Part shown: positions 33,252 to 43,097 of the stretch, one piece after another
Numbering within the stretch: the first letter of the stretch is position 1
Layout of the letters: each line of letters starts with the position of its first letter
The notes under the pieces: generated by a model
Databases searched by the model: none
Seen by the model: the letters and a program-made list of their open reading frames with translations, nothing else
Told to the model about the DNA's origin: nothing
Assembly: GCA_965198065.1 (NCBI GenBank)
Contig: CBDAON010000004.1
Coordinates: forward strand, 1,888,001 to 1,952,000
Reading direction: 5' to 3'
Length of the DNA: 64,000 nt
Source: Longimicrobiales bacterium
GTDB taxonomy: Bacteria; Gemmatimonadota; Gemmatimonadetes; Longimicrobiales; Gaopeijiaceae
Made by a program: the position numbers and the translations under genes

Positions 33252-34931
33252 CTAGCGTGTCAGCGGTTTGTACGGGATCCGGCGCGGCTGCGCCGCCCCC
33301 GCCCCAAGGCGTCGGACGCGGTCCTCCTCGTAGGCCTGATAGTTCCCCTCGAACCAACAAACGGTGCAGTCTCCCTCGAATGCCAGGATGTGGGTCGCGA
33401 TCCGATCCAGGAACCAGCGGTCGTGGGAGATCACCGCGGCGCATCCGGGGAAGGAGAGCAGGGCATCCTCGAGGGCTCGAAGCGTGTCCACGTCCAGATC
33501 GTTCGTGGGCTCGTCCAGGAGGAGCACGTTACCTCCGGACTTGAGGAGCTTGGCCAGGTGCAGGCGGTTCCTCTCTCCACCCGACAGCACGCCCATCTTC
33601 TTCTGCTGTTCCGCCCCGCGGAAGTTGAACCACGAGAGGTAGGCGCGCGAGTTCACCTCGGCCCACCCGAAGTCCACGACCTCGTGCCCGCCCGAGACCT
33701 CCTCCCAGACTGTATGGTCTGGGTGGAGGTCGGCGCGGGACTGATCCACGTGGGCGAGCTTCACGGTGGAGCCCACGGTCATCGTCCCCTCGTCCGGTGA
33801 TTCGGTTCCGACGATCATGCGGAAGGTTGTGGTTTTCCCGGCCCCGTTCGGCCCGATGATCCCCACGATCCCCCCCCGTGGCAGACGGAAGCTCACGTTC
33901 TCCATCAGCACGTTGTCGCCGAACGCCTTCGTCACGCCCTCGAAGATCACTACATCGTTTCCGAGACGCGGTGGGCGCGGGATCAGGATCTCGGCGCCCG
34001 CCACCTTTTCCTCCTCGCCCTGCGCCAGCATTTCCTCGTAGGCAGTGATCCGGGCCTTTCCTTTCGCCTGCCGAGCCCGAGGGCTCATGCGGATCCACTC
34101 GAGTTCCCGCTCGAGCGTCTTCCGGCGGGCGCTCGCCTGCTTCTCCTCCTGCGCTAGCCGAGCGCTCTTCTGCTCGAGCCAGGAAGAGTAGTTTCCGTGA
34201 TACGGGTGGCCCTCCCCGCGGTCCAGCTCCAGGATCCATTCGGCCACGTTGTCCAGGAAGTAGCGGTCGTGGGTGACGGCCACGATCGTTCCCTTGAAGT
34301 CCGCGAGATGACGCTCGAGCCAGGCGACTGACTCTGCGTCCAGGTGGTTCGTCGGCTCGTCGAGGAGGAGCAGGTCCGGCTCCTCGAGCAGGACCTTGCA
34401 GAGCGCGACTCGCCTTCGCTCTCCACCCGAAAGGGTCTCGATCTCGACGTCGGACGGGGGGAGGCGAAGCACGTCCATTGCGATCTCGATCTTCCGGTCC
34501 AGATCCCACGCGCCCGTGGCGTCGATTCGATCCTGGAGCCGGGCCTGCTCCTCGAGGAGGGCCTGCATCTCCTCGTCCGACGTGACCTCGCCGAACGCGA
34601 GGTTTACCTCATCGAATCGTGCGAGTAGCGCGCGGGTCTCCTTCACACCCTCTTCCACATTGCCGCGAACGTTCATGGAGGTGTCCAGCCGGGGCTCCTG
34701 CGGGAGGTAGCTCACGCGGGTGCCGCGAGCCGGCCAGGCCTCACCTTGGAAGTCCTGATCGACGCCGGCCATGATGCGGAGGAGGGTGCTCTTTCCGGCG
34801 CCGTTCGGTCCGACGACCCCGATCTTCGCGCCGGGAAAGAATGACAGCCAGATCCCCTTGAGGATCTCGCGCTTGGGCGGAACGACCTTCCGAAGATCTT
34901 TCATCACGTAGATGAACTGGGGCCCGCTCAT
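33252..34931 (-). CDS. ettA: Energy-dependent translational throttle ABC-F ATPase
   Basis: LSFFPGAKIGVVGPNGAGKST, two ABC cassettes, RQAKGKARI, DRIATHILAFEG. Confidence 0.95.
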   Translation of the reverse strand: MSGPQFIYVMKDLRKVVPPKREILKGIWLSFFPGAKIGVVGPNGAGKSTLLRIMAGVDQDFQGEAWPARGTRVSYLPQEPRLDTSMNVRGNVEEGVKETRALLARFDEVNLAFGEVTSDEEMQALLEEQARLQDRIDATGAWDLDRKIEIAMDVLRLPPSDVEIETLSGGERRRVALCKVLLEEPDLLLLDEPTNHLDAESVAWLERHLADFKGTIVAVTHDRYFLDNVAEWILELDRGEGHPYHGNYSSWLEQKSARLAQEEKQASARRKTLERELEWIRMSPRARQAKGKARITAYEEMLAQGEEEKVAGAEILIPRPPRLGNDVVIFEGVTKAFGDNVLMENVSFRLPRGGIVGIIGPNGAGKTTTFRMIVGTESPDEGTMTVGSTVKLAHVDQSRADLHPDHTVWEEVSGGHEVVDFGWAEVNSRAYLSWFNFRGAEQQKKMGVLSGGERNRLHLAKLLKSGGNVLLLDEPTNDLDVDTLRALEDALLSFPGCAAVISHDRWFLDRIATHILAFEGDCTVCWFEGNYQAYEEDRVRRLGAGAAQPRRIPYKPLTR

Positions 34932-35746
34932 GCAGCGGCGCTCCTCCGGTCGGCGGACGAGCGGACGAGCATGACGACCAGCATCGTGGTGCCCAGGATG
35001 CCCATGAGCCCGGAAAAGATCTGCGAGAGGGTGAGCCCCCCCCAGACGATGTCTTCCTCCCGGAGGTACATGAGGCCGAAGCGGATCCAGCCGTAGAGGC
35101 CGATGAAGCTCCAGCTGATGACTCCGCGCGGCGGGCGGAGTCTTTCACGCACGAGGAGCAGGAAGCCGGCGAGCGCGAAGTTCTTCGCCGACTCGTACAG
35201 CTGCGTGGGGTGTCGGCAGCCTTCGGGCGGGCGAGCCATGAACTCGCTCTGGGAGTAGTCCACGCAGACGAGCCCCTCGTAAGGAGTGCCGTACATCTCC
35301 GCGTTCACGAAATTCGCGATCCGCCCGAGCGCCAGCGCGACGGCGACCGGAATCGCGATCCGGTCCAAGAGGTGGAAGAGCCGAATGCCGTAGCGGTGAG
35401 TGAACCATGCCGCGGTGATCAGCACGCCGGTCAGCCCTCCGTGAAACGCGAGGCCGCCCCGCCACACGGAGATCCAGGCCAGGGGATCGATGCCGTATCG
35501 ATCGAACTCGAACACGAAGACGTGGAAGAACCGCGCTCCGACGAGCGCGGCCAGGATCGCCGCCAGAACGAAGTTCTCGGCGGTCTCCTCGGAGAGGTTC
35601 GGGATGCGCTCCTGCCGAGCCGCCTTCCTCAGCGACAGGTACACGAAGAGCATGCCGAGCATGTAGGGAAGGGAATACCATCGCACCCCGAAATCCCCGC
35701 CAAACCGGATGATGAACGGATCGATGTTGTGGAGGATTCGAAGCAA
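34928..35746 (-). CDS. lgt: Prolipoprotein diacylglyceryl transferase
   Basis: VRWY, GGLAFHGG, GRIANFVNAE, RHPTQLYE. Confidence 0.93.
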   Translation of the reverse strand: MLRILHNIDPFIIRFGGDFGVRWYSLPYMLGMLFVYLSLRKAARQERIPNLSEETAENFVLAAILAALVGARFFHVFVFEFDRYGIDPLAWISVWRGGLAFHGGLTGVLITAAWFTHRYGIRLFHLLDRIAIPVAVALALGRIANFVNAEMYGTPYEGLVCVDYSQSEFMARPPEGCRHPTQLYESAKNFALAGFLLLVRERLRPPRGVISWSFIGLYGWIRFGLMYLREEDIVWGGLTLSQIFSGLMGILGTTMLVVMLVRSSADRRSAAA

Positions 35747-35838: not shown

Positions 35839-36993
35839 TCAGCCCTCCGGCCGAACCGCCTGGAGAACGCACAGGATGAAATCGTCCCACGCCAGCATCT
35901 TGCTGACGACCGGGCGATCGACCCCCTGCTGTGGCACGGCACCCCCGGTGAAGAAAACGACCCGGTCGGCCAGCTCCGGAGCCTCCGCCCTCAAACCTCG
36001 GTAGATGTCGTTGGCCGAGAGATCCCTCAGGTTCAGGTCGAGGAGCACGACGTCCGGTGTTTCGGTCCGTATGCTGCCGACCGCTTGAGCGACGGACGAC
36101 CACCCGACCGGGTCCATCTCCAATGCCTCGGCACCGGAACGGCGAAGCAACCGGCCGAAGGTTCGCCGGACGGCGCTGTCATCGTCCACGATCGTCACGC
36201 AGAGGCCGGCCAGGGGGGAGCGGTCCCGGATCGGGGCCAGGTTCCCGGGCCCGCCTGGCGAGAGCCGTACCTGCCAACCATTGTGGAAAGCGGGAGGACG
36301 ACGCGGAACGTGGCTCCGCAGAGGATCGAGGGGTCCGGCTCGAACGTGAGCCCCCCCCAGCCGTTCGATGCCCCAGCGGGCGAACGAGAGGCCCAGACCG
36401 ACACCCAGGCCCGTTCCCGACACGAACGGGTCGAACAGGTGATCGGCGAGCTCGCGCGACATCCCATCGCCATCGTCTTCCACGCGAATCTCCACCTGCC
36501 CCCCGTCCGCAGTGAGCCTCACGGAGAGGCGGATCTCGGAGCGGGCGTGGCGGGCCGCGTTTCGGAGGAGGTTCCCGATCGCGCGGGAGAAGAAGCTCCG
36601 CGGCCCAGAGACCTGAACGTCCTTGCGGAGCGACGAATTCAGGGTGGTGGTCACGGCGGGGGCTCCCATGAGCCACCGATTCACCACCTCCTCGAGGGTC
36701 CCCTAGACGGGAAAGGTTAGCTCCATCGGTGTCCGGAAGCCCCGCAGCTCATCGAGGACCTCGACGACCATCCGCCGAATCTCCTCCGTGTCCGACTGGA
36801 TGCGGCTGAGCTCTTCCGACGGTGTGCGCCCGAGCGCGGCCTCTTCACGGGCAAGCGAGACGCGGCCCGCGAGAATCGAAAGGAGGCCCCCCAGGTCGTG
36901 GAGGAGCTCGCCCGTGACCCTTCCGAGCTGCCGGAGTCGCTCCTCGCGGTCCAGGGTACCATCCTCGCGCGAGCGCGTACGAGCCTCGGCCAT
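35839..36993 (-). pseudogene. Sensor-less hybrid histidine kinase (HisKA-HATPase-REC) with in-frame TAG at 36703-36705 and an apparent local frameshift pair
   Basis: ELLHDL H-box, NLLRNAARH, VEDDGDG, GVGLGL, REC VTIVDDD/LLDLNL; ORFs 36703-36993 and 35839-36687 share a frame. Confidence 0.75.
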
Positions 36994-36998
36994 CGGTC

Positions 36999-37817
36999 CT
37001 ACCTCTTGTCCGCCGCGTCGTCGCGGAACTCTTCGAGCTGACGCAGGAACGCGCTAGACACCGTGTCGAAGGCCCCCCTCTCTCTGAGACCCCGGGGAGT
37101 CTCGGGGATCACCGAGCGGATCGCGCGCCGAAGGGCCTGGTCTCCGGAGTAGCCGCACGCCAGGCCGACGCTGAACACGGTGTGCCCCGGGTCGTCGAGC
37201 AGGGCGGACGCGAACAACACGCGCAGCCAGAGGAGGAGCCGGCGGGGGTTCGGCAGTTGCGATCGGTGGCACCACCTAAGGAGAGTGGAAGGGGAGAACC
37301 CCAGCGATCGGGCCAGGTCCTTCGGATGGCCCCCGATCATGACGGTTTCGACGGCGGCATCCAAGAGCGTTCGTGCCCGGCCGGTCAGGGGAACGCCCGA
37401 ATCGTGCGAAAGGAGGCGTCTGAGCGGCTGCGCCCGAGCGCGGACCAGCCTTCGCGTGAGCGCCACCTGGCTGGAATCCTCGTCGTTCTGGAGGATCTCG
37501 GCTATACCCCACTCTCCGAGAGTCCAGATGTCTCGGTAGCGGGCCGGGGCCGTATCCAGAGCCACGATGACCGTAGACGAGGGAAAGGCGGTGAGGATCT
37601 CGTACAGTGCTGGAGAGGGACCCCCGCCGTTCGTCTGGCCGAGAAACGGATCCACGAGGACGACGGCGGCCGGCGGCGCCTCGCTCACGGCGACCCGCAG
37701 ATCCTCCCAACTGTCCACCATGGAGACTCGGAAGCGGGCGTGCGCAGCGCGCGACACCCTTTCACGGAGGCCCCCGTCCTGATGGAGGAGAAGGAGGGGG
37801 CGGGGGACGAACTTCAT
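36999..37817 (-). CDS. AraC-family HTH regulator with N-terminal receiver-like domain
   Basis: DLARSLGFSPSTLLRW...LLDDPGHTVFSVGLACGYS...LRRA; N-terminal VVLVDP. Confidence 0.8.
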   Translation of the reverse strand: MKFVPRPLLLLHQDGGLRERVSRAAHARFRVSMVDSWEDLRVAVSEAPPAAVVLVDPFLGQTNGGGPSPALYEILTAFPSSTVIVALDTAPARYRDIWTLGEWGIAEILQNDEDSSQVALTRRLVRARAQPLRRLLSHDSGVPLTGRARTLLDAAVETVMIGGHPKDLARSLGFSPSTLLRWCHRSQLPNPRRLLLWLRVLFASALLDDPGHTVFSVGLACGYSGDQALRRAIRSVIPETPRGLRERGAFDTVSSAFLRQLEEFRDDAADKR

Positions 37818-37819
37818 AT

Positions 37820-37854
37820 ACTGACGTAATCCGTTATGGAACTGACGGGATCGG
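37820..37854. promoter_or_regulatory. Direct repeat with 21-bp period, candidate operator
   Basis: ACTGACGTAATCCG (37820) and ACTGACGGGATCGG (37841), 11/14 identical. Confidence 0.45.
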
Positions 37855-37975
37855 AGTGTGCTGCCCGGCACCGACCAACCCAAATTCGATCCCGTGTGTT
37901 CCCTCGTCGAACATGAACGACACCCTCAGGAAAAGGGGATTATATATCGGGGTTGACGGGCGGGGCTGCGCGCCG

Positions 37976-38116
37976 CTAAGCCTTGCTGCCCGTGTGACGG
38001 GCTGGCTTCTCGGGGCGGTATCTTAAGACCGCCTCAGCCACCTGCTTCGGTGTGGCGCCACCGTACGCGGCTTTCAACGGCTTCTTCTTCTTCTTCTCGG
38101 GTTTCCTCATGGTCAT
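37976..38116 (-). CDS. Small basic passenger protein inside the IS
   Basis: RBS GAGGTG; MTMRKPEKKKKKPLKAAYGGATPKQVAEAVLRYRP. Confidence 0.5.
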   Translation of the reverse strand: MTMRKPEKKKKKPLKAAYGGATPKQVAEAVLRYRPEKPARHTGSKA

Positions 38117-38241
38117 GGCTTCTTCACCTCGGTGGTGACAGATTCGGTTGATGCCTGGGAACAAGACAGCCTACTACGGATTTACCGGCATCATCGAGCC
38201 CAGATCCGCGACAAGAATAGCTAGTGCCTTCAATCGGGCCG

Positions 38242-38925
38242 TCAGTTCTCGGGGAACGGCTGGTAGGTCGCGTGCGGGTAGGTGCGCCTGCGGTAGGTAT
38301 CATTCATGGCAGGTGCCTGGGCTCGGCCGGACTCCAGGTAATCGATCAAGTCCCACGCCTCGTCAACTTGCTTGGTAGAGCGGTCCTTCATGCCCACGAC
38401 CGCCGTCTTGCCCACCGAGCCGCGGCCAGCACGGAGCCGCTTCGACGAGTGCTTGTTCTTCTCCCGGCCGCCGACGTAGGTTTCGTCCACTTCGACCGGT
38501 CCTTGGAAGACCATCGGCCCGATGTCGGCGAAGGCTTCCCGGATCCGCTGCTGCATGAACCACGCGGTTTTCTGCGTCACTGAGATGTCGCGGTGCAGCT
38601 TCATCGAGGACACGCCCTTGAGACTCGTGCAGTCCAGGTAGATCGCATAGGCCCACTTGCGAAGCGGAAGGGGCGAGCCCTCCATGACCGTGCCGGTCTT
38701 TGGGGAGAAGTACTTCCGGCAGTCGCGGCACCGATAGGGCATCGTCCGATGGGAGCACTCGTGCGTGTTCAGGCTTCCGCAACGCAGACAGGCCCGCTCC
38801 CCGTCCGGCCAAAGAATCGACTCGAACCACCGGCGGGCCTCGCCTTCGTCCGCGAAGCGGTCCGACAACTCCAACATCGAGATCCCCTTCCGATGAGACT
38901 TGCCGGGCGCCTTGGTGATAGCCAT
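38242..38925 (-). pseudogene. Truncated IS1595 (ISXO2-like) transposase
   Basis: Zn ribbon CLRC/CRDC, KGVSSMKLHRD, VEVDETYVGG; similarity ends at DRSTKQV, so the rest of the DDE domain is missing. Confidence 0.9.
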
Positions 38926-38962
38926 GTAACCTCCTGTCAGTACGCGTCTTACCGTACACTTG

Positions 38963-38991
38963 AAGGTAACAGTCTACGGCCCGTCTGTCAA
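38963..38991 (-). promoter_or_regulatory. Inward-facing sigma70 promoter of the transposase
   Basis: TTGACA - 17 bp - TACCTT on the minus strand, with the -35 inside the right inverted repeat. Confidence 0.65.
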
Positions 38992-39027
38992 CCCTGAGAT
39001 ATAAGCCCCCAGGAAAAGGATTGGGTC

Positions 39028-39249
39028 ATACGCAAGCTCCGGCTCCTCGCGGCGGCTATCGCCCTCACCATGACGGCCGCCTGCGGTGACTTCGGCCCTA
39101 CGGCCCCCGAACCTAACGACGCCGAGAACGGGTTCCTCGGGTCGGGCGGTGGCGGCAACGGCTTCCTCGGCTCCGGTGGTGGTGGCAATGGCTTCCTCGG
39201 CTCCGGCGGCGGCGGCAACGGCTTCCTCGGCTCCGGCGGTGGAGGCTGA
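39028..39249 (+). CDS. Unannotated 73-aa lipoprotein-type prepropeptide with four NGFLGSGGGG repeats (start codon reads ATA)
   Basis: RBS AGGAAAAGGA; (M)RKLRLLAAAIALTMTAA|CGDFGPTAPEPNDAE(NGFLGSGGGG)x4 then stop; repeat differences are all synonymous. Confidence 0.8.
   Translation: MRKLRLLAAAIALTMTAACGDFGPTAPEPNDAENGFLGSGGGGNGFLGSGGGGNGFLGSGGGGNGFLGSGGGG
39127..39246 (+). repeat. Four tandem 30-bp coding repeats
   Basis: Units start at 39127, 39157, 39187 and 39217; each translates to NGFLGSGGGG. Confidence 0.95.
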
Positions 39250-39272
39250 CGCAATCACCGCGCAGGGGTCGA

Positions 39273-39323
39273 AAGGGGGGAGGCAACGGTGGACTCGGAG
39301 CCTCCCCCCTTCCCTTCTTTGTT
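39273..39323. terminator. Hairpin between the convergent peptide and TPR genes
   Basis: AAGGGGGGAGGC...GCCTCCCCCCTT followed by CCCTTCTTTGTT. Confidence 0.6.
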
Positions 39324-39339
39324 GCGATCTGCGCGGCAC

Positions 39340-40704
39340 TCACCGGTCGCTCGCGACCGACGCCTCTGCAACCGATGAGCCCTCGGGGGCTCCCGGCGCC
39401 TCTACGCCCACCTGAAGCGAGCGAAGCAGGTCGCGAGCCAGGCGGTCCGCTTCATCGGTCGACGCTGCTGGGGTCGCCGTGCGGAGTGCCCGCGCGGCCT
39501 TGACGTCAGCGTGGATCTCTTCCATGACGGACTCCGCGAGCAGCCGCACCCGCCCTTCCCGACGAGCGCGGGCGACGGACTCGGCCAGGTGAGCCGCTTC
39601 ACCGGCCTCGTCGTGGCGGCCCAGCATGAGGGCGCCCCGCGCCACCTCCACCCAGGACTCGGACACTCCCGGAGCGGGCTCGCACCGGCCGAGCTCGTTG
39701 CGCGCCCAGTCGAACGCGTCGGTGTCCCCGAGCCCCCCGGCCGCACGCGCGACGGAGCCGAGAACGGTCGGCCGCTCCACGGGCCCGACCCTCCCGAGGG
39801 TCTCGAGAAAGACCGGGAGGGCGTGCCGGCAGTCTCCGCTCTCGAGCCAGAAGTAGGCGATGTCGTGCGCGAGCCGCGGGAGACCCGAGTGGCCGCGACT
39901 GTGGGCCGCGACCGCCTCGCGGGCGTAGCTGAAGGCCCGGTCCGGGTTACCCGCCTGCCATTCCAGAGTAAAAAGGTCGTGCAGGGACCAGGCCTCGCCG
40001 TCACGGAGGCCCTGCCGCCTCGAGCGGCGAAGGGCCTTGAGAATGCTTCGACGCGCGGCCGGGATCACCCCACGGCGAAGCATCATGACGCCGTGCTGGA
40101 GGTACGCGCGGACATACGCCTCCCAGTCGCGCGCCTGGCGAGCGAGCCCGACGGCCCGATAGAGCCATGCCTCCGCGCGGCCGTATTGCGCCAGGTCCCT
40201 CGACGTGCGGCCAACGGCGAGGGCGAACGCCGGATCCGCCGGGCAAGAAAGAGCAGCGGCTTGGAGGAATTCGAGCTCGGTGCGGCGATGGCCGCGCCCC
40301 TCTGCCCAGGTCGCAATTCGCCGGCAGGCGACGGCGACGAACCCGGGGTCGGCACGTTCGGGCTCCGACAGGACCGGGATCAGGTCCTCGAGCGCTTCCG
40401 TGAGTGCGGGCTCGTCGGCCGGCGCCGTGGCGAGGATCTCCAGCTGCCGCCGATCGGCCGCACCATCATCGAACAGTTTCCAGCGGGAAGCGGCGCCCAC
40501 ATCGGCCCAAAGGATCACGGATCGGAGGGACTTCCAGAGGACGCACCCGAGCTCGCCTCCGATCTCTCCGAGGACAACGAGTCCCTCCGGACCGGGCCCG
40601 TCCCCGTCGTGGACCAGAGGAGGAGGAATCCTCCAGCGCCTCTTCGCGACGGTGGGGTTCGTTTCGCGCGTTGGCGCACCGCGTCCGAGCTCGGCTGCTC
40701 GCAT
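39340..40704 (-). CDS. TPR-repeat protein, no signal peptide
   Basis: Helical repeats YGRAEAWLYRAVGLAR, YVRAYLQHG, EAWSLHDLF, PRLAHDIAYFW, SWVEVARGA; start uncertain. Confidence 0.75.
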   Translation of the reverse strand: MRAAELGRGAPTRETNPTVAKRRWRIPPPLVHDGDGPGPEGLVVLGEIGGELGCVLWKSLRSVILWADVGAASRWKLFDDGAADRRQLEILATAPADEPALTEALEDLIPVLSEPERADPGFVAVACRRIATWAEGRGHRRTELEFLQAAALSCPADPAFALAVGRTSRDLAQYGRAEAWLYRAVGLARQARDWEAYVRAYLQHGVMMLRRGVIPAARRSILKALRRSRRQGLRDGEAWSLHDLFTLEWQAGNPDRAFSYAREAVAAHSRGHSGLPRLAHDIAYFWLESGDCRHALPVFLETLGRVGPVERPTVLGSVARAAGGLGDTDAFDWARNELGRCEPAPGVSESWVEVARGALMLGRHDEAGEAAHLAESVARARREGRVRLLAESVMEEIHADVKAARALRTATPAASTDEADRLARDLLRSLQVGVEAPGAPEGSSVAEASVASDR

Positions 40705-40913: not shown

Positions 40914-41696
40914 CTACGGAGTCCCCACCGGAGCGCCTTCGAGAAGGGTTCGCACGGGAGGCGGCAGCTCCAGCTCGGCGGCGGTTACCCCGTTCAGCTC
41001 GACGCTCGTCACCGTGACCTCTTGGTCCTGGCCCATCACGCGCTGAATCATCCGCATGGGAATGAGCATGCCGCCGTGCTCGCGGTAATCGGAAAGGAGC
41101 GTTGTGACGGGGAGGGGCCCCATGGGCGTGAGCTCGACGTCCTCGGATGCGATGAGGAGCCCGCTGTCCGCCGAGAAGCAGTCGTGGCTTTCGCGCCCGG
41201 AGGCCCATTCGAGTCGCACCCTCCAGCACGCTTCCCCTTCGAACTCGGACAGCTCCACTGTCTCGCGTCCGGGCACGATCTCAGGATCGCGGAGGTCTCC
41301 CAGCACGTGCGCGCGCTCCCGGGCCTGCTCCAACTCGGCTCCCTCGAGGAGCATGGGGCCGAGCAGCGAGTTCATGCTCCAGCCCACGCGGCCGTCGTAG
41401 CCGAGCACCTGCTCTCCGATGCCAGGCAGAGTGGCCCGAAACACGCTCTGGTCCGGGAGAATCTGGATCACCTCGAACTCCCCCTCGATCCCAAGCCCGG
41501 CCATGGACACGGTTCCGGTGGTGCGAATGCTCAACGGTGCCAGATGCGCGTCGCTTCCCCCAATGGCTTCCACGTACCTCCTGATCAGGTCGTCCGCCGC
41601 GGGTAGCTCCTGGGCCCGGAGGGAAGGCGAGAGGAGAAGGAGGGCGAAGCCCAGGGCCGTATGAATCGAACGCTGTCTCATTATCGGTGTCTCCAT
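40914..41696 (-). CDS. Secreted LolA-like / lipoprotein-sorting-like beta protein
   Basis: Signal peptide; YVEAIGG, GYDGRVGW, SDYREHGGMLIP. Confidence 0.6.
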   Translation of the reverse strand: METPIMRQRSIHTALGFALLLLSPSLRAQELPAADDLIRRYVEAIGGSDAHLAPLSIRTTGTVSMAGLGIEGEFEVIQILPDQSVFRATLPGIGEQVLGYDGRVGWSMNSLLGPMLLEGAELEQARERAHVLGDLRDPEIVPGRETVELSEFEGEACWRVRLEWASGRESHDCFSADSGLLIASEDVELTPMGPLPVTTLLSDYREHGGMLIPMRMIQRVMGQDQEVTVTSVELNGVTAAELELPPPVRTLLEGAPVGTP

Positions 41697-41705
41697 ATGG
41701 CTCGG

Positions 41706-43097
41706 TCAGCGGGGGCCCGATACGGGGGCCGACGCACCCGGAAGCGAGCCCAGCCAGTCCAACGCAGCTGCGAGCGCGACGTCCCTCCCCGCGAGGAGGG
41801 ACTCACGGCTCGGTGCTCGCGGGACATCGGGCTGCACTCCCGACCCCTCGAGCCGCGATCCGTCCGGTGCCGTGAAGTCGGCGACCACGTGCATCATGCG
41901 GTCCCCATTGGGCAGTTCCACGACGACTGCCGGAAGCGCCTGACCGGCCGTGGGCTCCCCGAACAGCCGGGCGCGACCGAGCGCTTGGAGGCCCGCCGCG
42001 AAGAACTCCGAGGTGCTGGCGGTCAGCGGATCCACGAGGATGGCCACCGGTCCCGCGTAGGGCTCCACGCGGCGCCCGTCCGGAGCGACGCGCTGAGGGT
42101 TCACGACGAACTGGAGCTCCGTGTCCCGGGTACGCATCGCGCCGAGGCTGACGGGCTCGTCGAGGAAGTGCCCCCCGATCCCCATGGCGAGGGCGCCGAG
42201 CCTCCCGGGGTTCCCCCGGAGATCCAGCACGATGCCGTGGGCATCGCGCAGTTCGTCCACGGCCGCGGCGACGGCGGGCACGATCGCCGGGAACCAGGCT
42301 GACCAGCGGACGACTCCGACCCGCTGGCCGCCGGTCAGGATCTCCTCCCGGAAGTCGGCGTCCACGCGAAGCGGCGGGAGATTTCCGAAGCGCACCTCCT
42401 CCCCTGCCGGAGGAGCACGGTCGACGTCGAAAACGATGGGCGCACTGGAACCGTCCCGAAACCCAAGCCGGACCGGCGTTCCCTCTGGTCCGAGCAGCCG
42501 CCGCTCGACGGCTTCCGGGAGCCAGAGCGCGAACTCGCGTTCCTCCGTGCGATCGGGAACGGCCGCCCGGATCCGCTGGACCAGGCTGTCTACCGGAAGG
42601 CCTGCGATGGACTCGAGGATCCAGCCGGGTTGAATGCCTGCGACGGCCGCGGGGCTTTCCTCTCGGACTCGCGCGACCACGACCGCGCCGTCCAGCCAGC
42701 GGATGCCCAGGCCAGGGCTCGCGTTGCCCTGCGGCGGACCGACCGGATCCACGCCCAACAGCCCCACCGCCGAGCCGGGAATGATCGTGAAGTGCGACTC
42801 TCCGAGCCGCCCGAGCATCTCGGACAACACGCGCCGAAGCTCGCTCGGGCTCTCGGCCGCGACCGCACGCGGCCGGAGCTCCGCACGCACCGCATCCCAA
42901 TCCAGGCCGCGCATGCCGGGGTCGTAGTATGTGTCGCGTATCCGATTCCACACGAAGTCGAACGTGACCTGCGGGGAAGCCGTCCCCGGGGAGGAGGGAG
43001 GCTGACGGAGCGCGGCGGCGGCCGGCGGCGAAAGAACGGAAACGGCGACGCCTACCGCGAACAGGCCACGCCTGCCGTTCCTGGGTGAAGTCAACAC
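41706..43097 (-). CDS. Secreted S41-family peptidase with PDZ domain
   Basis: YYDP, SPAAVAGI PDZ, IVLDLRGN, TASTSE, GVQPD. Confidence 0.85.
   Translation of the reverse strand: MLTSPRNGRRGLFAVGVAVSVLSPPAAAALRQPPSSPGTASPQVTFDFVWNRIRDTYYDPGMRGLDWDAVRAELRPRAVAAESPSELRRVLSEMLGRLGESHFTIIPGSAVGLLGVDPVGPPQGNASPGLGIRWLDGAVVVARVREESPAAVAGIQPGWILESIAGLPVDSLVQRIRAAVPDRTEEREFALWLPEAVERRLLGPEGTPVRLGFRDGSSAPIVFDVDRAPPAGEEVRFGNLPPLRVDADFREEILTGGQRVGVVRWSAWFPAIVPAVAAAVDELRDAHGIVLDLRGNPGRLGALAMGIGGHFLDEPVSLGAMRTRDTELQFVVNPQRVAPDGRRVEPYAGPVAILVDPLTASTSEFFAAGLQALGRARLFGEPTAGQALPAVVVELPNGDRMMHVVADFTAPDGSRLEGSGVQPDVPRAPSRESLLAGRDVALAAALDWLGSLPGASAPVSGPR

Follow-up and report, generated by a model that had tools for sequence, protein, structure and literature searches.

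The literature presents the reading of peptide signals by cytoplasmic tetratricopeptide repeat (TPR) receptors as a trait of Firmicutes (PMC10075063, PMC9765709; here and below, papers are cited from the parts of their text that were available). The signature of such RRNPP systems comprises a propeptide of 10–100 aa, its Sec-dependent secretion and maturation, a receptor of 250–500 aa, TPRs within that receptor, and adjacency of the two genes (PMC10075063). Repeated mature peptides occur in Rap, AimR, NprR and PlcR propeptides, and receptor genes without a peptide are known for RRNPPA (PMC9765709); the available part of PMC12700828 makes no mention of Gram-negative or Gemmatimonad members. Here we describe a locus in a Longimicrobiales bacterium (assembly GCA_965198065.1), lying in a 64,000-nucleotide stretch of contig CBDAON010000004.1 (positions 1,888,001 to 1,952,000; hereafter the window), in which genes for a TPR protein, a small lipobox-bearing peptide, an AraC-type regulator and a hybrid kinase stand together at 35839–40704. 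We consider it probable, at roughly 0.6, that this cassette is a Rap–Phr–ComA-like peptide signalling circuit in a diderm phylum. The host is diderm, as a preliminary description of the locus had held, since its genome encodes LpxC and LolA; its relatives are Gemmatimonadota, many of them Longimicrobiaceae, by record title.

The gene order and orientation given in that description (kinase, regulator, insertion sequence (IS), peptide, TPR) proved correct, and the core arrangement, in which a TPR gene and the gene of a small lipobox peptide converge and an AraC-type regulator gene points away from the peptide gene, recurs across the phylum and not only in this genome. A profile built from 112 TPR proteins matched 90 of 201 phylum genomes at 1e-15 (eight candidates per genome were scored, and the tally includes this genome and G190). 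From the fetched loci we took 160 distinct TPR hits. Thirteen that were incomplete or scored worse than 1e-15 were set aside, as were six of the 147 full-length hits for want of 500 nt of downstream sequence, which left 141. A convergent small lipobox open reading frame (ORF) follows 125 of these 141 genes, while the same detector found one on the same strand in 1/141 cases, in 9/1120 long ORFs and in 7/1500 random windows of this genome; the window itself is a detector miss because its peptide start reads ATA. In a second batch of TPR genes the convergent peptide was present in 34 of 43, one of them doubtful, and an AraC-type regulator gene follows 110 of 139 TPR genes, so that the co-location of receptor, peptide and regulator on which the preliminary description had staked its proposal is borne out. 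This gene order lies far beyond chance. Since the genomes are kin the counts are not independent trials, though they span six family codes.

The cassette shows four of the five features of the RRNPP signature, and the fifth, secretion and maturation, may be indicated by the signal and lipobox pattern. The propeptide has 73 codons here and a median of 49 aa in homologues, the receptor has 454 aa here and mostly 420–445 aa in homologues, the Pfam family TPR_12 is found in 111 of 112 members, and the peptide stands beside the TPR gene at the frequencies given above. Downstream of the regulator the 111 cassettes with that gene differ: 62 have a stand-alone receiver, five a kinase and 41 neither, while three left no room. 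In nine close metagenome loci the kinase is present in five, two run straight to lgt, and two hold remnants. Because the kinase occurs in 5/111 cassettes and is absent from the close relatives L183 and L184, we take the core to be three genes, with the kinase as an optional fourth.

Copy number varies. Within the same order, one genus is represented by five genomes that carry 15–20 TPR matches each, and in genome G039 seven strong regulator matches stand against 16 TPR matches. Some TPR matches of the multi-copy genus lack a peptide, and many TPR–peptide pairs lack an adjoining regulator. At L028, L062, L162 and L167 the TPR and regulator genes lie 40–55 nt apart with no peptide gene between them; these are listen-only candidates. 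Clusters of two to three TPR paralogues, some with interleaved peptide and regulator genes, were seen at L055, L068, L199, L202, L210, L223 and L227, and at L055 a RadC/JAB gene follows one paralogue. Six natural proteins of 700–880 aa (P0133, P0135, P0139, P0142, P0143 and P0160) are two tandem copies of the TPR unit. A TPR–regulator fusion was sought and none was found, the eight long hits inspected being TPR duplications or unrelated extensions; a search for longer proteins with a regulator alignment also found nothing, which is weak evidence. Single-protein queries against phages, plasmids and viral contigs gave no match. Atlas clusters scoring at least 0.96 are commonest in Gemmatimonadota, a result that gives no taxonomic range.

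The regulator and its predicted complex with the TPR protein

The regulator gene (36999..37817, minus strand) is intact and encodes 272 aa, comprising a receiver-like domain (residues ~1–128), linker helices and an AraC-type helix-turn-helix (HTH). Its N-terminal domain has the receiver fold, with five strands alternating with helices and fold hits to StyR, FixJ, HupR and AmiR (1qo0). The chemistry of receiver phosphorylation is established, and both an acidic pair and a lysine are relevant to it. Among 107 regulators the acidic pair after strand 1 is kept in two and the lysine after strand 5 in one, Asp56 is kept in 99, and the Thr/Ser position is occupied as expected in 65, with Leu here. 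Lacking the acidic pair and the lysine, the domain is best regarded as a pseudo-receiver for which phosphorylation, and with it Rap-type dephosphorylation, is unlikely. The receiver–AraC architecture first described thus holds as a fold and fails as a canonical receiver, and the suggested Rap-like action on a phosphorylated receiver loses support with it.

These findings also bear on a phosphorelay, in which the TPR protein would be a Rap-type phosphatase or a kinase modulator whose target is either the sensor-less kinase or a regulator in its phosphorylated state. The retention of Asp56 would suit it, as would the presence of a canonical receiver after the regulator in 67 of 111 cassettes (in 62 as a stand-alone protein, in five within the kinase). 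We nevertheless judge it highly improbable, given the missing acidic pair and lysine, a kinase that is rare and lost in close relatives, the 41 of 111 cassettes with neither receiver nor kinase, the lack of any match to the Rap three-helix bundle family RapH_N (PF18801) in three genomes at E 0.01 (a B. subtilis control scored above the cut-off), and a modelled contact that lies away from Asp56.

That contact comes from a model of the TPR protein with the regulator, which scored 0.77 where the best of three controls scored 0.01; of 157 solved pairs 116 attained the score mark, and of 215 mismatched pairs two did, a calibration that is rough here because our own alignments were used, and the score is a statement of model confidence only. 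The runs shared at least 73% of contacts, with a partner predicted local distance difference test (pLDDT) of at least 82. In the model, TPR residues 24–93 and parts of 173–216 touch regulator residues 89–153, that is helix 4, strand 5, helix 5 and the linker, leaving the HTH largely free and all twelve groove-side polar residues checked untouched. The N-terminal domain of the TPR protein is therefore predicted by the model to bind the regulator. Neither the PDB sequence matches listed nor a wide fold search held a solved relative of this N-terminal domain, so that memory of a like complex is no obvious cause of the score. The preliminary description had left the target of the TPR protein open between kinase and regulator; the regulator finds support in this model, and the kinase, present in few cassettes and a pseudogene here, does not.

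A direct repeat with a 21-bp period (GATCCCGTCAG / GATTACGTCAG; 37821..37852, minus strand) lies immediately 5' of the regulator ATG. Of 106 cassettes, 54 have such a repeat 5' of the regulator, where shuffled sequences give 4.2 ± 2.0; lag 11 is mildly raised (17) and the remaining lags are near background. With a matrix made from nine relatives only, the window's site ranks first genome-wide, at 24.7 against 18.8 for the next. Typical AraC sites are direct repeats two helical turns apart. We infer that the repeat is the operator of the regulator, and the feedback on the divergent peptide promoter proposed earlier is in keeping with a repeat of this spacing in the promoter that the two genes share, binding being predicted. 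The same matrix gave 17 weaker hits in the genome (G000 C4 883862, 1126937, 2796685 and 14 more) against one in a reversed-genome null; as regulon targets we judged them not convincing.

The peptide and the receptor groove

The preliminary description had missed that the precursor is of the lipoprotein type. The gene (39028..39249, plus strand) encodes a basic-hydrophobic signal sequence, a lipobox (TAA-C19), a linker and four NGFLGSGGGG repeats, and begins with ATA; by our own pattern the signal is of the signal peptidase II (SPII) rather than the signal peptidase I (SPI) type. Across 127 homologues the median length is 49 aa, with a mature part of 27 aa whose middle is variable and whose tail is constrained. 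Tails end in a G-S-G type in Longimicrobiales and in QGSNN, NSNTC, DFVNP or KPWG elsewhere, and in 14 of 127 peptides the tail motif is tandemly repeated two to six times. In many peptides (L097–L117, L135, L142–L145 and others) the tail has a C-x(6-9)-C pattern, from which a disulfide loop could arise outside the cytoplasm.

The lipobox type holds for every one of the 125 peptides detected, in part through the detection filter, at a rate far above controls. This would suit retention over diffusion, and hence a circuit that monitors the cell's own lipoprotein export or envelope state: the ligand would be the cell's own precursor, changed Sec, Lgt, Lsp or Lol handling or periplasmic proteolysis would let its tail reach the cytoplasmic TPR protein and shift the regulator, and no signal would pass between cells. 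The gene for prolipoprotein diacylglyceryl transferase lies directly downstream in close relatives, and no conserved protease or importer gene is nearby, both of which fit such a monitor. The lgt linkage is confined to close relatives, however, with a MerR-family gene or LemA next elsewhere, and tandem motifs, tails that differ by lineage and genomes with as many as 20 TPR matches would better fit diversification of a signal. We regard self-monitoring as unlikely.

The TPR protein (39340..40704, minus strand) is intact, all-helical and without a signal peptide, and no signal or membrane segment was seen in its sequence. It was modelled at pLDDT 91.3 and a predicted template modelling score (pTM) of 0.83 as an N-terminal helical domain followed by ~7 TPRs. 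The wide fold search returned LGN (Z 20.9), RapH (Z 20.5; root-mean-square deviation 4.0 over 284 aligned residues), Pins (20.2), the pLS20 Rap (19.9), MalT (19.8), and phi105 Rap and RapI (both 19.4). In this sense the protein is Rap-like, as first described, its fold tying with Rap proteins.

Two observations concern the groove of this protein. First, among 143 TPR proteins R169 is conserved in 137, D281 in 126 (N in 10) and D243 in 84; D281 and D243 both stand at TPR position 6, in neighbouring repeats, and all three residues are at what we take, by the usual position rule, to be helix-A positions lining TPR grooves. Second, with overall similarity removed, D243 ranks first among 290 columns in tracking the peptide tail (r 0.36; the runner-up has 0.20). 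Of 31 pairs with G243, 19 have a proline in the tail core, as do two of 78 with D243; the switch is seen between close relatives (L019/L008 at 85% identity, L041/L046 at 78%), and at new loci none of 24 D243 pairs had the proline. The D243–tail link is suggestive of direct binding of the peptide by the TPR protein. The covariation once proposed as a check on the pairing thus found a leading column and failed for the groove as a whole, since groove positions as a set track the tail no better than other columns (p 0.29, in a test with one repeat anchor one residue off).

The D243 link also counts against the possibility that the small lipoprotein is a mere output of the regulator, a surface or envelope lipopeptide, with the TPR protein sensing some other ligand and never the peptide. 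Such an output would explain why the peptide gene is divergent from the regulator gene across a repeat-bearing promoter common to both, why four TPR–regulator pairs have no peptide between them, and why many tails have two cysteines, which suggest a stable exported loop. The many TPR–peptide pairs without an adjoining regulator, however, indicate that the peptide travels with the TPR gene and not only with the regulator, and we hold an output role to be quite improbable.

In the signalling circuit that we prefer, the pro-peptide would be exported as a lipoprotein and the precursor clipped, releasing a short C-terminal tail as the signal. Taken back up into cells, the tail would lodge in the groove of the TPR protein in the cytoplasm. 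The N-terminal domain of this receptor is predicted to hold the adjoining AraC-type pseudo-receiver regulator, which would be freed once the peptide is bound; this anti-activator mode is favoured at about 60:40 over a co-activator mode because the regulator face covered in the model is presumably the usual receiver dimer surface. Freed regulator would act on the repeats of 21-bp period that separate the peptide gene from the divergent regulator gene, and so provide feedback. It would also turn on the next gene downstream, which encodes a stand-alone receiver in most lineages and a sensor-less kinase in few. Such a circuit might serve density sensing. Its weak links are the protease and the uptake route.

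Several results weigh against this circuit. For a precursor that is lipid-anchored and enclosed by an outer membrane, both a protease and a means of import are required, and neither is a conserved neighbour; two peptide ABC-transporter binding proteins are encoded in the genome, and nothing ties them to the cassette. The G-S-G tail is common to many paralogues and would therefore limit specificity. Besides the result for the groove set, the D243–proline association comprises only about four independent pairs (3.8 the same way, 0 opposite, p 0.125), the trait was chosen after seeing the data, and the sample of new loci held no G243 TPR protein with a peptide. Covariation between the TPR protein and the regulator is not enriched in the modelled interface, with two of the top 200 pairs against 4.4 expected, although this test (mutual information between columns, 71 effective sequences) is uninformative. 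Finally, the TPR fold is as close to LGN, Pins and MalT as to Rap (identity 10–15%), and no RRNPP protein is among the Foldseek matches listed, which are eukaryotic and designed TPRs, or among the 60 PDB sequence matches listed, nor is an RRNPP-specific Pfam family among the 25 of 38 families listed.

The broader reading, that intracellular-receptor peptide communication on lipoprotein-borne signals runs throughout Gemmatimonadota, with this TPR family directly gating the pseudo-receiver AraC family, is one to which we would give a little less than an even chance. Peptide codes would then differ by lineage, some alleles would be amplified ('loud'), some receptors would be orphan listeners, and a cell could have as many as ~20 channels.

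The copy in this strain and its neighbourhood

The cassette copy in this strain is decaying. The kinase gene (35839..36993, minus strand), which begins 5 nt after the regulator gene, has the make-up of a sensor-less HisKA–HATPase–receiver hybrid kinase, as first described, and is a pseudogene here: an in-frame TAG at 36705–36703 and a compensated −2/+2 frameshift (~36350 to ~36260), which replaces ~30 residues at the end of the ATPase domain, interrupt the continuous frame. Intact 384-aa kinases of the same protein cluster are found in the sister strains P0011 and P0012. We compared the locus with sequencing runs through contigs of depth 2–9; no RNA sample is among the listed holders of the sequence. 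Run X1, possibly the sample from which the assembly came, is identical to the window over the kinase part, and run X8, from another study, shows no difference at the TAG and covers both ends of the IS. Runs X3, X7 and X9 have GAG in place of the TAG, with the frame restored in X3 and X9. Read-through or an assembly error as the explanation of the TAG was rejected on these comparisons.

The regulator and peptide genes are separated by an IS1595-family element of 1075 bp (37935..39009, minus strand), present in one copy in the whole assembly. Its assignment rests on 30-bp inverted ends, an 8-bp target duplication (CAGGAAAA, at 37927–37934 and 39010–39017), and a zinc-ribbon and DDE transposase that is truncated (38925→38242). 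The site is empty in runs X3 and X7, so that the IS, correctly named in the preliminary description as what interrupts the cassette, is strain-specific; it lies 10 bp upstream of the peptide start and cuts the peptide gene off from the 127-nt shared promoter region. The start codon itself is ATA, and ATG stands at this position, within a matching context, in the close relative L183; a single unlisted difference sets X3 and X7 apart from the window in this stretch, and the ATA base may or may not be the one concerned. The decaying state of the allele, seen in the ATA start and the IS, had been overlooked earlier. With the peptide gene and kinase damaged and the TPR and regulator genes intact, this would be a listen-only or dying copy. 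Run X3 also lacks 60 nt of the peptide repeats (window 39129–39190), two copies fewer, by repeat-number polymorphism or assembly collapse. Cassette decay is repeated among relatives of this genome: at the same chromosomal place (from the 260-aa ORF described below to lgt), L070, L190 and L191 retain only a TPR 5' fragment beside a regulator 3' fragment.

A perfect 12-bp inverted repeat (39273..39311) between the convergent peptide and TPR genes is a likely terminator that the terminator scan did not call; sigma-70 and terminator scans called nothing at the locus. Directly after the cassette lies lgt (34928–35746, minus strand), here and in close relatives; in the other families examined it does not follow the cassette. 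At the opposite end, upstream of the TPR gene, two genes are found at 40914–43097 (minus strand): a 260-aa ORF that has a signal-like N-terminus and matches no Pfam family, and a gene for a PDZ-containing S41 peptidase. Synteny of one or both extends to close relatives only (L070, L183, L184, L190, L191). The peptidase is a possible candidate for the peptide-processing enzyme. In other lineages a MerR-family gene or LemA takes the place of lgt. A MerR-family gene follows the stand-alone receiver at L127 and L129, which were scanned, and at L138, L146, L149, L154 and L158, judged by similar N-termini, with LemA close by in several of these loci; receiver and MerR-family gene, with LemA near, may form a conserved output operon in family f4.

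Comparison with known systems

Our literature search, outside which most subscription papers and all supplements fell, found no description of this cassette, in agreement with the earlier statement that no such architecture was known. The nearest likeness is to Rap–Phr–ComA of Bacillus (RapF–PhrF–ComA, RapC–PhrC). Both have an HTH-less TPR protein whose N-terminal helical domain binds the regulator and whose C-terminal groove is separate, a split documented for RapF, where Asp194 and Asn227 anchor PhrF (PMC3601957), and predicted here from the model; Asn227 is the conserved groove residue that binds the peptide backbone, to which D281 or D243 might correspond. Both have an adjoining small pro-peptide, probably exported here, with repeated mature motifs (PMC9765709) and paralogue arrays with orphan receptors (for the Rap repertoire, PMC3601957), and the fold matches four Rap structures at Z 19.4–20.5. 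The differences are equally clear. Our host is diderm; its precursor has a lipobox, whereas 92.3% of RRNPPA propeptides with a predicted route use Sec/SPI (PMC9765709); the peptide gene converges on the receptor gene; and the target is a linked pseudo-receiver AraC protein contacted on its receiver and linker, whereas ComA is contacted on its DNA-binding domain. RapH aligns only to residues 97–384 of the TPR model, the N-terminal domain is not the Rap three-helix bundle in register, identity is 10–14%, and RapH_N does not match. Having failed both the Rap N-domain test and the canonical receiver test, the protein is not filed as a Rap. With the phosphatase mode of RapH–Spo0F it shares a TPR protein bound to a receiver fold, here modelled; it differs in a receiver without the catalytic acidic pair and lysine and in a modelled contact away from Asp56.

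Three other systems each share a part. AmiR of Pseudomonas, a non-phosphorylated receiver held inactive by its ligand-sensing partner AmiC, is among the fold hits of our regulator; AmiC has a binding-protein fold and senses amides, AmiR is an RNA antiterminator, and neither a TPR nor a peptide gene is involved. The Enterococcus sex pheromones are likewise lipoprotein-derived signals sensed by a cytoplasmic TPR-like receptor, PrgX, but they stem from the signal sequence and PrgX has its own HTH, whereas the constrained part here is the mature C-terminus. The TPR domains of LGN, Pins and MalT tie as best fold matches (Z 20.9, 20.2 and 19.8), a likeness of the generic TPR superhelix only, in unrelated contexts; LGN binds extended peptides in its groove, according to PDB entry titles.

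More than 150 natural receptor–peptide pairs, a predicted interface, candidate groove residues and a candidate operator are now in hand. Gemmatimonadota are mostly uncultured, and synthetic peptides could offer a way into the physiology of the phylum. If the signalling reading is true, the cassette would imply a route by which a peptide from a lipid-anchored precursor is released and taken up across two membranes. It would also be a Gram-negative counterpart of Rap–Phr, either independently evolved or a deep RRNPP branch, and, with a receptor family found in close to half of the genomes sampled from this diderm phylum, it would widen the Firmicutes-only picture of these systems.

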